53,371 nt of DNA from an uncultured Pseudomonadales bacterium. GTDB taxonomy: Bacteria; Patescibacteriota; Microgenomatia; UBA1400; UBA12108. The DNA is taken from contig CAZZNJ010000002.1 of the NCBI GenBank assembly GCA_964655755.1, forward strand, positions 1 to 53,371, read 5' to 3'. Of this stretch, positions 40,447 through 45,581 are shown one piece after another. The translations under genes and the position numbers were made by a program. Below the pieces are notes generated by a model that made no database searches, was not told the origin of the DNA, and saw only the letters and a list, made by a program, of their open reading frames with translations. How positions within the stretch are numbered: position 1 is the stretch's first letter; every line of letters begins with the position of its first letter.

Positions 40447-41046
40447 TTAATTTCCCAAGAATACTCTTGGATTTACAGGTATTCCATACACATTTACCTG
40501 AAAATGTAGATGGACACCTGTTGCCCAACCAGTTCGCCCCTGAGCCCCTATAACGTCACTAGTAGTCACTTTTTGCCCTTCATAGACGTAGATGTGATTA
40601 AGATGGGCATAGATGGTGGTGAGATTGTCTCCATGATCAATAATCACATGCTTGCCATATCCCCAGAATATCTCTCCGGCATAGATGACTGTGCCATCCA
40701 TCGCCGGATTAACTGGATAATCTAGAGAGTTAGCTATATCTAGTCCGGTATGAAAGACTTGATACAAGCTGGACTGTCCAAATTCTAGTGTAATCACGCC
40801 TTGTGTTGGCCAAACAATCGGCTTGTCAACCGTAGCCACCACTTCACCAGTGGTGGGATCTTTAATCTCAACAGTCTGAGTAACAGGGTTTTGCTCAACT
40901 AGCTTATCCGAGATAACATTAATACCAACTTGAGTAAGTAAAATCGCAGCAATTACAGGAAGCATGAGAAGGGTGAGAAAAGCTAGGAGGACAACTTTCA
41001 ACTCTTTCTTAAATGACCAAAGGGTAAGTAAGAGCTTGGGGTTCAT
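40447..41046 (-). CDS. Membrane-anchored M23 (LytM-type) peptidoglycan hydrolase, last gene of the T4SS-like operon
   Basis: N-terminal TM segment; HTGLDIA (HxxxD) and HLHFQV (HxH). Confidence 0.85.
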   Translation of the reverse strand: MNPKLLLTLWSFKKELKVVLLAFLTLLMLPVIAAILLTQVGINVISDKLVEQNPVTQTVEIKDPTTGEVVATVDKPIVWPTQGVITLEFGQSSLYQVFHTGLDIANSLDYPVNPAMDGTVIYAGEIFWGYGKHVIIDHGDNLTTIYAHLNHIYVYEGQKVTTSDVIGAQGRTGWATGVHLHFQVNVYGIPVNPRVFLGN

Positions 41047-41049
41047 GGC

Positions 41050-42849
41050 TTAGATATAGACTTCCCTGGGGTCAGTGGTGAGAAGTGGGTGTTCTTCCTC
41101 AGAGGCCACAATCTTAACCGCTACATGGTTTTGATCGGCAATAAGTAAGGCTTCACCACGATCACAAGTGAGTAGGTAGTGTTGCTCATAAGCGGAGAGG
41201 TGGAACTCTCTGGCCACTTTCTTGATCGTGGTTGTGTCCTGCCTCATCAGGATTCTTAAGGATGACTGGCTAGCAATCGCCTTGCCGTAATCCTGTGAGA
41301 GAAAATCACTGGCTTGTTGAGTAATAATCGTGACTCCTAGATAGTATTTGCGAGCACGTCTAACCAGTCCTGAGATAAACCTGGCACTCTCTGGCTCTTG
41401 TAGGAGAATCCACCCTTCATCAATGACTAGGAGTCTTTTCTGTGGGTTACTCTTGACCTCATTATTCACAAAGTTAGCTAACACCATCATCATCACTTGT
41501 CTGATTGAGTCCGAGAGATCCTTAATATCAAAAACAATCAGGCGATTATCAAGCTTTATGTTGGTTTGCGAGTCAAAAACAGTAGACAGTGAGCCCTTAA
41601 CATATCGCTCGAGTCTGTCACAAAGATCCTTTTGCTTCATTTTCTTGAGGGTTTTGAAAAAGTCAGTAAGGAGTGGGTATTTAATTTTGTCTGGGTCTTT
41701 GGCATTCTTCCTGGCAGTCAGGCCAAACTGTTTATAGGTAGCCAGTAAGGCTTTATCAACCACAGCTCGTTCCTCAGAAGTGAGTGAACCAACCATAAGT
41801 GAGACTAGTTCGGTTAAGTCTTGGATGTGTTCAGCCAGGTTATTTTCTCCCACAACGCTTCTCGTGCTGTAGCCAAAAGGATTAATCTTTTCTTTGCTTG
41901 TAGCCGAAAGCTTGATATAGGTGCCGTTAACAGATTTCGCAAGTTGCCTGTACTCACGCTCTGGATCAATGATAATAACTTTCGTGCCTTGCATGAGCTG
42001 GCGCAAGATCTCGACTTTAGCCGTGTAACTTTTGCCTGATCCTGATTGGGCAAATATTATCGAGTTAGCGTTATTGAGTGAGTATCGATCAATGATGACG
42101 AGTGAATTGTTGGACTTGTTAATGCCATACAAGATCCCTGATTCTTGTACTAGCTCTGATGATACAAAAGGAAAAGTGAGGGCGGCACTTGAGCTATCAA
42201 GATTTCTTTTCTGAGCTAGTTTGTTTTCAGCTCTAGGAAGTACCGACTGTAACCCTTCAAGTTGCTGGAAGGTGGCAACTTTAATAAAGAACAGCCTAGT
42301 TTGCATGACAGTCTCAAGTAGCTTAGTAGTTTTGTTTAGCTCCGAAAGCGTAGTGGATGAAATCGTCATGTATAAGGAGACCTGGAAAAGCTTTTCCTGT
42401 CCACGCTGGATCTTGTCTTTTAACTCCATAGCAGATTCCAAGGGGTCAGTGATCTCACTTCCGATTACTCTGCCATCTTTGAGCATGGTGCGCTTGGTAC
42501 TCTCAAGCTCCGTAATCTTGCGGTTAAGCTTGGGTAGGGCGCTTAAGGGGTCAACTTCTTCAATGTGGTAACTAATGTCGATGTCATGGTTAAAGTTGAT
42601 GAGGTTATTTAGCCAGCCAGTTGAGGCAACATAGGGGTAGCCTGAGACAAAGAAAGTCCTCACATATCTATCGTTAATTTGTAAGTAAGATGATTCTTCT
42701 TTTAGCCCTGAATAGGAGATCAGATCTACTTGATCTTGGGTACCATACGCAAGGTTTATGGCCTTACTTTTTTCAAGCTTACGCTTGCGATTTTTTTGAT
42801 ATTTTTTGACTAGTTTGTTTCTGGTAATCAGTTTTGTAAGTTTAGACAT
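41050..42849 (-). CDS. virB4: VirB4/TrbE-type T4SS ATPase (ATPase portion)
   Basis: 599 aa. Walker A FAQSGSGKSY, Walker B LLVIDEGW and ITQQASDF. Confidence 0.85.
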   Translation of the reverse strand: MSKLTKLITRNKLVKKYQKNRKRKLEKSKAINLAYGTQDQVDLISYSGLKEESSYLQINDRYVRTFFVSGYPYVASTGWLNNLINFNHDIDISYHIEEVDPLSALPKLNRKITELESTKRTMLKDGRVIGSEITDPLESAMELKDKIQRGQEKLFQVSLYMTISSTTLSELNKTTKLLETVMQTRLFFIKVATFQQLEGLQSVLPRAENKLAQKRNLDSSSAALTFPFVSSELVQESGILYGINKSNNSLVIIDRYSLNNANSIIFAQSGSGKSYTAKVEILRQLMQGTKVIIIDPEREYRQLAKSVNGTYIKLSATSKEKINPFGYSTRSVVGENNLAEHIQDLTELVSLMVGSLTSEERAVVDKALLATYKQFGLTARKNAKDPDKIKYPLLTDFFKTLKKMKQKDLCDRLERYVKGSLSTVFDSQTNIKLDNRLIVFDIKDLSDSIRQVMMMVLANFVNNEVKSNPQKRLLVIDEGWILLQEPESARFISGLVRRARKYYLGVTIITQQASDFLSQDYGKAIASQSSLRILMRQDTTTIKKVAREFHLSAYEQHYLLTCDRGEALLIADQNHVAVKIVASEEEHPLLTTDPREVYI

Positions 42850-43935: not shown

Positions 43936-45212
43936 AGATTAACTCTCTTTCTGGGAGCTTTGACCTCGCCCTTAGTTGCTCTTGAACTACTATCTGTCGT
44001 AATGACGTTAGTTATTTGCTTACCAACTCTGTGAACTGCTCCCATGCTCCTAGAGAAGAACATCATCTGCATGAGAAATGGCGGGATTTTAAGCAGGGTA
44101 AAAAGGAGGCCAATCGCAACTGCAACAGAGATTAGGGAGTTATCAGTCTGCTCAGGGAGGGTAAGAAAGGCTCCAGCCAGTTGGATGGTGACGACATGAA
44201 CGAAAATCGTAAATACCGAGACAAAGTAACCTTTAATTGCCATCTCAGCAAACGAGGCGGTCTTAGGGAGAGTGAGAAGCAAAAAGATAAAGGGAGATAG
44301 TACGGCTCCGAGTGCGATCACGATCAGTCGGCCAATATACATAAGAAGCAAGATTATGGCTGTGATGAGGAAAATCAGAAGGAATATCAGAATAATAAAT
44401 GGGGCTGAGCCGTTAGTCAGACTGGAGATCGTTACCGCATTACTAATCCAGGCTTCATTGAGTCCTCCAGTTGAGGCAATTACTCCTGTTACAAGGGCAT
44501 TACTCGCTTTAATCACATAATCAGCTAGAAATAACGAGACATTAGCTCCCAGGAAACAAAGACCTATACGTGGCAGGAGTTGTCCAAACTCGAGTTCTTC
44601 AAAGCCAAAAGTGGAAGCACTCATTAGTTGCAGTCCAAGGAGTGCCACTACGATGACAAATAGTGAGTCCACAATCCCCAGCATTGTTAGCCAGAACTTC
44701 ACAATGGAGGAGTTTTCTAGCAGTGAGGGGGTTGTACCCAAGAAGGTCATAATCCCATCCACAATTGGTTTTGTCGAGCTTTCGACAATGTTTTGGATAA
44801 AACCATTAACCGCGTCTATTAGAACCTGAGTTAGTCCGTCATGTGGCTCAACGCTCTCGATTTGGGTAATGGGGAGAGTCTCTACACTTCCACTACTCCC
44901 GTCACCAACTAGTGCGCCTTGAAGCACGGAGACAATAAGGTTTGCACTAAGGACTACCACAAGACCAATCAGCGTATTGCGGATAGTTTTCTTGGCTGAC
45001 TCTAGAGCTTCTGGTTTGCCGGTACTAGTTATGTAGATGTAACCTGCTCTAATTAAAAAAAAGACCGCTGCTGCGGCCGAGATTAAAGTTATTAGTGACA
45101 AGGTGTCACTCGTGAAGTTTATGACCTCACTTGGTTCTCCAGTTGAGGCAAGAATAGTTTGAGGAAAGATGAGTGGTATTAAGATTCCTAAACTTAGAAG
45201 TATTACTTTCAT
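43932..45212 (-). CDS. VirB6/TrbL-like polytopic membrane protein with an N-terminal VirB2-like pilin module
   Basis: 426 aa. Signal peptide, then a pilin-like segment (YIYITSTGKPEALESAKKTI), then ~6 TM segments. Confidence 0.65.
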   Translation of the reverse strand: MKVILLSLGILIPLIFPQTILASTGEPSEVINFTSDTLSLITLISAAAAVFFLIRAGYIYITSTGKPEALESAKKTIRNTLIGLVVVLSANLIVSVLQGALVGDGSSGSVETLPITQIESVEPHDGLTQVLIDAVNGFIQNIVESSTKPIVDGIMTFLGTTPSLLENSSIVKFWLTMLGIVDSLFVIVVALLGLQLMSASTFGFEELEFGQLLPRIGLCFLGANVSLFLADYVIKASNALVTGVIASTGGLNEAWISNAVTISSLTNGSAPFIILIFLLIFLITAIILLLMYIGRLIVIALGAVLSPFIFLLLTLPKTASFAEMAIKGYFVSVFTIFVHVVTIQLAGAFLTLPEQTDNSLISVAVAIGLLFTLLKIPPFLMQMMFFSRSMGAVHRVGKQITNVITTDSSSRATKGEVKAPRKRVNL

Positions 45213-45245
45213 AGCTTTTCATAAGCCAAACTTATTAACTTGTTT

Positions 45246-45581
45246 TTACTGTCCTGCTCCAAAGGCGGTGGTAGCCAAGTCTGAAACAATATTAGTTAAT
45301 ACAAATGCGCCTAGTACTATTGCCAGTCCAATTCCTGAGTAGAGGATAGTTTTCTTGGATCGCTCTAGTGTCTCTGGATTACCAGAGCTAGTAATATATC
45401 CGACTCCGCCCCAAACAAAGAATCCGGCAGCAACAAGTCCAGCCAATGTAACAAGTACTTGAATAATGCTTTTGATAAACGTCTCGATTTTGGTGACATC
45501 TGCAGAGGCCGCATAAGTAGGTGTAGCAAGAAGTAGAAAAGAAAGAGAAAGTGTTGCTAGGGTGATAAGTTTTTTGTTCAT
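45246..45581 (-). CDS. VirB2/TrbC-like pilin
   Basis: 111 aa. Signal peptide ending TYAAS, two hydrophobic helices separated by YITSSGNPETLERSKKTI. Strong SD AAGGAGG. Confidence 0.65.
   Translation of the reverse strand: MNKKLITLATLSLSFLLLATPTYAASADVTKIETFIKSIIQVLVTLAGLVAAGFFVWGGVGYITSSGNPETLERSKKTILYSGIGLAIVLGAFVLTNIVSDLATTAFGAGQ

Follow-up and report, generated by a model that had tools for sequence, protein, structure and literature searches.

The closest described counterparts of the locus examined here are the type IV secretion systems (T4SSs) of the Patescibacteria, which are nested in the MPF-FATA group and have a TrsD gene adjoining virB4, PrgI/VirB3 and VirB2-like pilins, a VirB6 that is hard to detect in Microgenomatia, and peptidases that replace VirB1 (Quinonero-Coronel et al. 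2025; PMC12102498). These systems occur in 2,417 of 3,035 Patescibacteria genomes; relaxases are rare nearby—the survey had 58 MOB-C hits, rarely near virB4—and type IV coupling proteins (T4CPs) are usually far off (PMC12102498). The T4SS locus of Southlakia epibionticum (SEML1_0006-0019) also has no recognisable relaxase or coupling protein, from which protein export or another role was proposed (Wang et al. 2023; PMC10633639), and reviews have treated the role of T4SSs in the candidate phyla radiation (CPR) (PMC12857230, PMC11665869). Here, we analysed a stretch of 53,371 nucleotides (hereafter, the window) that carries a six-gene T4SS operon at 40447-45581. Going by gene order in its relatives, we consider it probable that this operon is the mating-pair-formation module of a roughly 23-25-kb element, resembling integrative and conjugative elements (ICEs), in a Microgenomates-type CPR bacterium.

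The order proposed for the element is complete in one relative, L164 (contig JAIOHL010000169.1; L-numbers are labels for relative loci), and partial in seven others; among more distant ones, the recombinase gene lies against a tRNA gene. The portion in the window would run from a phospholipase D (PLD)-family gene to a Bro-N gene; the presence of a T4CP, a relaxase, and an integrase just right of the window is inferred, as is actual transfer. Compact monoderm T4SSs of episymbionts that lack coupling protein and relaxase have been described before (Wang et al. 2023; Quinonero-Coronel et al. 2025). What our analysis adds is a Microgenomates-lineage CPR T4SS embedded in a conjugation-type backbone, together with a diversity-generating retroelement (DGR)/adhesin module and a slot for defence genes. 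One branch or more of the CPR T4SS family is still wired to such a backbone, which bears on the function of the essential CPR T4SS.

The six-gene operon and its described counterparts

The operon and its leader comprise the following features:

45582..45730, minus strand: operon leader with a promoter-like TTGACT-16-TATAAT, a GC hairpin and T-run, and AAGGAGG before the pilin ATG (consensus matches only)
45246..45581, minus strand: VirB2/TrbC-like pilin, 111 aa; PF18895 T4SS_pilin 2.5e-12, PF04956 TrbC 1.1e-10, NF045849 2.5e-10
43932..45212, minus strand: polytopic membrane protein, a pilin domain fused to TrbL_4 (VirB6-like), 426 aa; T4SS_pilin at residues 35-97, 9e-12
43456..43935, minus strand: PrgI/VirB3-like protein with two transmembrane (TM) segments, 159 aa; PF12666 PrgI 2e-4, under the Pfam cut-off
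42842..43459, minus strand: TrsD-like protein, the VirB4 N-terminal domain as a separate polypeptide, 205 aa, soluble; NF045971 positions 3-171, 8e-11
41050..42849, minus strand: VirB4 ATPase of the CD1110/MPF-FATA type, 599 aa; NF045971 positions 180-733, 2.9e-109
40447..41046, minus strand: membrane-anchored M23 peptidoglycan peptidase, 199 aa; PF01551 4.9e-28

Together, the six genes form an intact, translationally coupled T4SS operon. Going from pilin to M23, the first two genes lie 33 nt apart, the next two junctions are ATGA overlaps, the fourth is an overlap of 8 nt, and the last leaves 3 nt between the genes. A first-pass annotation of this DNA had called the same six open reading frames (ORFs); they proved real at these coordinates on the minus strand, with all junctions as it described, and profile hidden Markov model (HMM) searches upheld its identities for the pilin, the VirB6-like, PrgI/VirB3-like, and VirB4 N-domain proteins, VirB4, and the M23 hydrolase, with riders for two of them. 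Within the leader, the hairpin and T-run that follow the promoter (45636-45703, minus strand) upstream of the pilin could be either a terminator of the preceding ABC operon or a leader attenuator of the T4SS genes.

For comparison, we used 80 virB4-centred loci from a scan of species-representative genomes, many of which reach just 7 kb upstream of the pilin. Where their labels are informative, these loci derive mostly from CPR/Microgenomates-type metagenome-assembled genomes (MAGs), many others being mislabelled third-party annotation (TPA) bins. Similarly, of the VirB4 relatives at 72-97% identity whose labels are informative, most belong to CPR MAGs (Collier-, Shapiro-, Levy-, Daviesbacteria, and others), and the non-CPR labels carried by many TPA MAGs and a few others are apparently wrong. 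An episymbiont, as first guessed for the host, thus agrees with relatives that are CPR/Microgenomates-type MAGs. Wherever the contig permits, the order pilin, VirB6, PrgI, TrsD, VirB4, M23 is kept in the 80 loci.

The free pilin, for which hydropathy indicates a signal peptide and two TM helices, was found in 63 of the 80 loci. Its neighbour of 426 aa, with about 3 + 5 TM segments by the same measure, had been called VirB6-like; that call gained TrbL_4 matches in close homologues and the added point that the gene is a fusion with a pilin domain. TrbL_4 (PF19597) spans residues 127-404 in homologues 72-76% identical to it (30-32 bits, cut-off 27) and is matched by 14 of the 26 family members, the window protein itself falling just under the reporting level; an AlphaFold2 model from the 26-sequence alignment (pLDDT 46.9) was too poor for a fold search. 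The PrgI/VirB3 assignment stands at family level: the window protein is under the Pfam cut-off, and all 31 aligned members of its family match PF12666, the best at 6.5e-8. Profile searches with the PrgI, TrsD, and VirB6 families against PDB sequences gave no meaningful match.

The ATPase is the most firmly placed component, scoring 366 bits against NF045971, the CD1110 VirB4 model (cut-off 325), and matching the solved VirB4 C-domain (PDB 4AG5) at 3.6e-47; its Walker A (GSGKS) and Walker B (DEGW) motifs read intact in translation. The 205-aa protein before it, which also matches NF045975 (4e-11) and the TrsD model NF041427 (9e-6), and whose relatives match PF26593 TraC-like, had been read as a VirB4 N-domain in its own ORF, and this is a conserved, TrsD-like state, kept in 78 of the 80 loci. 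We also considered whether the split VirB4 is a frameshift or pseudogene, which that conservation and the 599-aa form rule out—the ATPase has >7,000 homologues, in hundreds of clusters at about 85% identity, all of about 599 aa. The M23 peptidase, with one N-terminal TM segment and HxxxD and HxH motifs readable in translation, is the functional analogue of VirB1, and its gene lies directly after virB4 in 79 of 80 loci. For the nine genes from M23 to a giant surface protein upstream, comparison with L164 gave dN/dS of 0.014-0.045 at dS of about 0.8-1.3, which marks a real operon under selection rather than chance ORFs; judged by these ratios, the nine genes are in use.

With the Patescibacteria-clade systems, the operon shares the MPF-FATA-type VirB4 with its adjacent TrsD-like gene, PrgI/VirB3, VirB6, VirB2-like pilins, a monoderm and probably CPR host, a peptidase for VirB1, and an undetected VirB8; it shares, too, the absence of T4CP and relaxase from the operon itself, these lying upstream in the window lineage. 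It differs in that, next to a single free pilin, the VirB6 (TrbL_4) protein carries a pilin domain of its own, a fusion that may explain why VirB6 looked "scarce" in Microgenomatia. In the window sub-lineage, a serine recombinase, a T4CP, and a MOB-C relaxase are moreover linked to the cassette in cis, as are a DGR with a giant target, an end module of helix-turn-helix (HTH), small-protein, and PLD genes, and a defence slot; the main text of PMC12102498 has no mention of recombinases or the PLD gene.

The minimal monoderm channel set seen by the first-pass annotation is borne out by an MPF-FATA-like character. Gram-positive MPF-FATA systems (CTn2/CD1110 of C. difficile, pCF10 Prg/Pcf, pGO1 Trs) have in common with it a CD1110 VirB4 above the equivalog cut-off, a PrgI-type VirB3, a TrsD-like protein (the parallel here being pGO1), an operon that includes a gene for a wall hydrolase, and, in the window's relatives, a T4CP and a PD-(D/E)XK-type relaxase (MOB-C, pAD1 TraX-like). 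Unlike them, the window has a VirB2-like pilin, which is absent from Gram-positive systems, a hydrolase of M23 rather than SLT/CHAP type, and a split VirB4. The canonical VirB8-like protein of pCF10/CTn2-type systems (PrgL/TcpC/TraM) was not found in the window, nor was a PrgB-type adhesin. The nearest plasmid VirB4s, of the CD1110 family in Firmicutes/Actinobacteria, are 30-37% identical, and past the CPR relatives the next nearest VirB4s are those of Firmicutes at <=37%.

A conjugation backbone upstream in relatives

Pfam scans covered the window ORFs apart from two P-type ATPases, an aldehyde dehydrogenase, Lon, and an MFS-like transporter, five ORFs identified by translation alone; among the ORFs scanned there was no T4CP, relaxase, VirB8, or VirB11. 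Searches of the whole window by tblastn and by HMMs built from the T4CP, Replic_Relax, and DUF2958 proteins of relatives also found no match, so that the first-pass statement of these absences is confirmed. Scanning the window for tRNA genes and Rfam families gave no hits. The role other than classical conjugation that had been drawn from these absences does not follow, since T4CP, relaxase, and integrase genes lie upstream in colinear relatives, 12-17 kb from the pilin and past a cargo of DGR, giant, and ABC genes. We think that the absence is probably an effect of the window's edge; more generally, absence claims from a fixed window can be edge artefacts.

The clearest case is L164, which is colinear with window positions 40447-53125 at 86% nucleotide and 91-98% amino acid identity. 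Its order runs from a serine recombinase (541 aa; Resolvase/Recombinase/Zn-ribbon) through a 116-aa protein, a T4CP (856 aa; DUF87, TrwB_AAD_bind, TraG-D_C), Replic_Relax (268 aa), a 165-aa protein, and DUF2958 to bAvd, a reverse transcriptase (RT; RVT_1), KilA-N, giant, ABC, FtsX, pilin, VirB6, PrgI, TrsD, VirB4, and M23, with HTH, small protein, and PLD directly after M23. This ICE-like unit, at about 34.1-57.2 kb of JAIOHL010000169.1, is a concrete element on which excision and transfer can be tested. Replic_Relax (PF13814) belongs to the MOB-C relaxase class (PMC5357655). The idea that it is a relaxase type missed by PMC12102498 was rejected, as the MOB-C class was covered by that study's tool.

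Seven relatives besides L164, with giant proteins 84-96% identical, have a matching upstream block as far as their contigs extend. L163 (giant 90% identical) has T4CP, Replic_Relax, DUF2958, IS110, bAvd, RT, Bro-N, giant, ABC, FtsX, and pilin, the T4CP again being of 856 aa, and L165 repeats the L164 layout until its contig ends at DUF2958. In five metagenome contigs from a scan seeded with the Replic_Relax relaxase (L103, L105, L106, L109, and L110; giant protein at 84-89% identity), tRNA, recombinase, a variably present T4CP, and Replic_Relax come first, followed by a 360-365-aa ORF, the giant gene, the ABC ATPase (83%), and FtsX (80%), the L110 contig stopping inside the giant gene. The 360-365-aa ORF is RVT_1 by Pfam in L103, to which that scan was limited, and Bro-N follows it in L103, L105, and L106. 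A relaxase of the Replic_Relax/MOB-C type, lacking inside the window, is therefore upstream in L163, L164, and L103-L110. The synteny comparison proposed with the first-pass annotation accordingly had two sides: gene order is kept in the 80 loci, and conjugation genes appear beyond the cargo block in relatives. That annotation had also held that a T4CP, a relaxase, and att or oriT sites just outside would make this an ordinary ICE; T4CP and relaxase are present in relatives, and att/oriT sites were not found.

Among the 80 loci more broadly, the backbone—large serine recombinase, small protein, T4CP, 257-aa Replic_Relax (1.3e-12), and DUF2958—sits immediately ahead of the pilin gene or right behind PLD in 10-11, scattered over the VirB4 tree, and 10 loci have the roughly 860-aa T4CP (TrwB_AAD_bind 2.8e-10, TraG-D_C, T4SS-DNA_transf). 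The metagenome scan from the relaxase recovered the backbone in dozens of contigs, in 10 of which, distinct from the five above, a T4SS cassette follows within 1-8 kb.

At the right edge, the window enters this same arrangement. Its end (52223-53371) aligns with the L163 Bro-N gene over the last 1.1 kb at 81.5% nucleotide identity, and the terminal ORF has 78-81% amino acid identity to the C-terminus of the 278-283-aa Bro-N of L103, L105, and L106. It is therefore very likely, to go by these alignments, that the RT stands about 0.6 kb and the relaxase, T4CP, and integrase about 3-10 kb to the right of the window; the source contig is 67,970 bp long, and the 14.6 kb of it outside the window leave room for a block of roughly 10 kb. 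Elsewhere in the window, a complete Bro-N gene (21408-22229, 273 aa) matches the PADLOC candidate defence family PDC-S13 at 2e-125, and its product shares 45-52% identity with the Bro-N proteins encoded ahead of the giant gene in relatives.

The remaining parts of the proposed element within the window are its cargo and end module:

53102..53371, minus strand: Bro-N gene, C-terminal part, cut by the window edge (53102-53323 ORF, frame open to window end)
48486..53105, minus strand: giant surface protein, putative DGR target, 1539 aa; N-terminal TM, FGE-sulfatase/C-type-lectin fold, fn3 repeats
51909..52027, minus strand: DGR variable repeat in the giant gene; matched at 89% by the template repeat of L163, L164, and L165, located between their bAvd and RT genes
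45731..48483, minus strand: MacB/FtsX permease and ABC ATPase, cargo upstream of the pilin; 97-98% amino acid identity in L164, 80-83% in L103-L109
38556..40406, minus strand: OLD/AriA/GajA-like ATPase-nuclease in a variable cargo slot; PF13175 1.4e-27, PADLOC AriA 1.9e-26, Old 1.1e-20
38346..38552, minus strand: XRE-type HTH, co-directional with the T4SS operon; HTH_3 8.6e-17, PADLOC restriction-modification (R-M) "Control_protein" 5e-15
38119..38349, plus strand: small conserved protein (f8 family) between PLD and HTH; family HMM 5e-5, position kept in at least 26 loci
37645..38100, plus strand: single-HKD PLD-family (Nuc-like) nuclease, last conserved gene; PLDc_2 4.1e-10, PADLOC MkoC/DrmC/DpdK, HxKx4D

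Going by its pair of variable and template repeats, the adenine-specific differences between them (11 of 13 mismatches fall at template adenines), and its C-type-lectin fold, the giant protein is a DGR target. The RT, bAvd, and template repeat of the DGR are outside the window and are seen at the corresponding place in L163, L164, and L165, where RT and bAvd precede the giant gene; in L103 an RT (by Pfam) does so. On the other side of the operon, the gap between M23 and HTH is, by comparison of loci, a defence hot spot and swap site. At ~97% identical VirB4, L081 holds a Qat-like four-gene set there (4879-9745, KAP_NTPase-QatB-x-TatD) and L082 another AAA_15 gene (12453-14294), 22% identical to the OLD-family gene of the window; the slot is empty in L001 (12403-12441) and L164 and holds type I R-M genes in others. 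De novo ORF clustering of the 80 loci linked only PLD, HTH, and the small protein widely with the six genes: HTH is downstream of M23 in about 46-49 loci and PLD is present in about 49-50, and the trio of PLD, small protein, and convergent HTH, which may serve defence, exclusion, or DNA processing, would close the element in about 50.

Several observations point to mobility. The recombinase gene and a tRNA gene (Leu, Glu, Lys, or Gly) overlap at their 3' ends in 13 loci. A search downstream of the recombinase for direct repeats >=15 nt of the tRNA 3' ends found none, which is not unexpected because these are serine recombinases. Beyond PLD, the genes are unrelated among four relatives despite ~97% identical VirB4: GIY-YIG/DUF5946/YGGT in the window, EamA/MscL in L081, MGMT/MiaB/MiaA in L082, and, in L164, ParA and a T4CP-like gene with a second Replic_Relax. 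Further elements seem to land at the PLD end. For the same genome pairs (L053 and L060 against window 31974-34349 and 41050-42849), Lon is 50-54% identical where VirB4 is 74-76%, a contrast unusual for a T4SS ATPase that suggests horizontal spread or extreme constraint. Several MAGs have two copies, 73-93% identical, and the locus is a mosaic, the giant/ABC/FtsX and HTH/PLD flanks being closest to L036 and the T4SS genes to L002-L012. GC content is 0.35-0.43 across about 37-48 kb versus 0.52 to the left, rising from 0.39 to 0.52 just past the PLD gene; this step near 37 kb suggests the distal end of the element.

The block beyond PLD in L164 (from 23851) and in L001 (13594-18473) itself resembles a mobile element, encoding a Replic_Relax (344 aa, 9e-18) and a sigma-like HTH together with a T4CP-like protein of 466 aa and a ParA-like ATPase; in L164, the ParA-like ATPase was judged from its N-terminal sequence. 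No such block is in the window.

The arrangement resembles tRNA-targeting ICEs and genomic islands in the integrase that abuts a tRNA gene (in the relatives), in the modular backbone and cargo, and in the hypervariable surface protein beside the transfer genes, which could set partner specificity. The Legionella DGR island is a comparison case of an island with a variable surface protein. Differences from such ICEs are the large serine recombinase in place of a tyrosine integrase, the lack of flanking direct repeats in our searches, and the DGR diversification of a 1539-aa fn3 protein that has its own MacB-type ABC partner. The R64 shufflon offers another comparison, the R64 thin pilus being cited in PMC12102498.

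A working model can be derived from what these families are known to do. The TrsD-like protein would provide in trans the N-domain of the VirB4 hexamer, which would dock on membrane VirB3 and VirB6, and the anchored M23 peptidase would open the wall locally. Sec-exported pilin would be pulled from the membrane and assembled into a conjugative-type pilus, for which the VirB6-fused pilin domain may act as nucleus. The giant variable protein would serve cell contact. The relaxase and T4CP encoded upstream would feed nicked element DNA into the channel, and the serine recombinase would excise the element and integrate it next to a tRNA gene.

More tentatively, and with some doubt on our part, these loci might represent a true ICE family circulating among Microgenomates-type CPR bacteria, one that combines a Patescibacteria-clade T4SS with a VirB2-like pilus, a tRNA-targeting large serine recombinase, a small MOB-C relaxase, and cargo made up of a swappable defence-gene slot and a DGR-diversified surface protein of 1,500 aa that would determine partner or host specificity. 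If so, the view that CPR T4SSs were co-opted away from conjugation would need revision, at least for this class, and VirB4 at about 75% identity where Lon is at about 50% would reflect ongoing conjugative spread.

Alternative roles of the operon

Several points weigh against an ICE-like element. To our knowledge, no transfer has ever been shown in CPR bacteria. The T4CP, relaxase, and integrase assigned to the element are outside the given sequence, and their presence here rests on synteny; L082, whose VirB4 is 97% identical, has a different layout (Lcl_C plus RT) upstream of a shorter giant gene. Profile searches of the operon and window ORFs detected no VirB8-like protein, and neither oriT nor att repeats were found, self-BLAST of the window showing no flanking repeats. 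In L109 (12989-20766), recombinase, Replic_Relax, a 360-aa ORF at the RT position, giant, ABC, and FtsX are followed by HTH and the small protein, with neither a T4SS cassette nor an adjacent T4CP; backbone and cargo can thus occur without the T4SS, which makes the modules separable, and the L109 element may be a mobilisable derivative. The backbone could be a separate mobilisable element parked beside a resident T4SS. In the phylum as a whole, T4SSs are near-universal, chromosomal, and mostly inherited within classes (PMC12102498), and S. epibionticum cannot grow as an epibiont without its T4SS locus (Wang et al. 2023; PMC10633639).

These points lead to the reading of the operon as a resident, domesticated T4SS for host interaction, which would extend a pilus to the host, transfer macromolecules such as proteins, and be needed for epibiotic life, with the backbone belonging to inserted or borrowing mobilisable elements. 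The first-pass annotation had called such a non-conjugative role poorly characterised; it is in fact a published hypothesis for Patescibacteria T4SSs (PMC10633639; PMC12102498). The prevalence of T4SSs in the phylum with relaxases rarely near (PMC12102498) fits this role, as does S. epibionticum, where both the T4SS and pilins are essential at a locus without recognisable relaxase or coupling protein (PMC10633639), and in a cultivated member tubular structures, possibly T4SS pili, occur at the parasite-host interface (bioRxiv 10.64898/2026.06.21.733656). Very strong purifying selection and the link to a DGR-diversified surface protein, suited to host recognition, are also in keeping with it, as are the L109 backbone without T4SS and the lack of a backbone within +/-10 kb in most of the 80 loci. 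However, many of these "backbone-free" loci reach no further than 7 kb ahead of the pilin, and the backbone is 12-17 kb upstream where giant/ABC cargo intervenes. Moreover, in the lineage of the window the backbone keeps a fixed order and orientation with the T4SS from 75% to 97% VirB4 identity, unlike chance parking, and the differing flanks and the contrast between VirB4 and Lon point to horizontal movement of the cassette itself. On balance, we regard a purely resident system as rather unlikely; a host-interaction role may nonetheless coexist with an ICE. A second recombinase/T4CP element faces the L109 element across a tRNA cluster.

A ComB-like system that takes up DNA or RNA of the host to obtain nucleotides, its substrate being processed by the PLD nuclease, strikes us as very improbable. 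CPR bacteria lack nucleotide synthesis and T4SS-mediated uptake has been proposed for them (PMC11665869), and the Nuc-like PLD gene is linked to the operon in over half of the 80 loci. That gene, however, is convergent with the operon and outside it; in translation its product has neither signal peptide nor TM segment, resembles defence nucleases (MkoC, DrmC, DpdK), and pairs with an HTH like R-M controllers. There is no ComEC-type partner nearby, and the T4CP and relaxase linked in relatives point to export. Hardly credible, finally, is a non-functional remnant left by an old ICE after loss of the genes for DNA processing: the window does contain no T4CP, relaxase, or integrase of the element, but the six ORFs are intact, translationally coupled, and equipped with catalytic motifs, their dN/dS remains far below one at substantial dS, and their order is kept across the 80 loci.

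Other features of the window

The sole recombinase in the window, at 1-1498, is 36 kb from the T4SS element. This large serine recombinase (minus strand) abuts a truncated tRNA gene, the layout of tRNA and recombinase being as in the T4SS elements. Positions 1-54 (plus strand) are the 3' half of that tRNA (...GGGGTTCGAATCCCTGCTCGGCAACCA), Gln-CTG-like by eye and missed by ARAGORN, as it is cut by the edge. The pair is probably a second, separate integrative island over the low-GC first ~5 kb.

Between this island and the T4SS element, the window encodes a 178-aa protein (7376-7912, minus strand) with three topoisomerase-type zinc-ribbon repeats, underlain by an internal DNA repeat 67.5% identical over about 300 bp, and four peptidase S51 paralogues (coordinates given: 11336-12642, 14323-15261, and 22236-22853). 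A metal-homeostasis cluster spans 16286-30137 and comprises ArsR/YHS, DUF305, two P-type ATPases, HMA, DsbD-cupredoxin, CobW, Fur, and ZIP.

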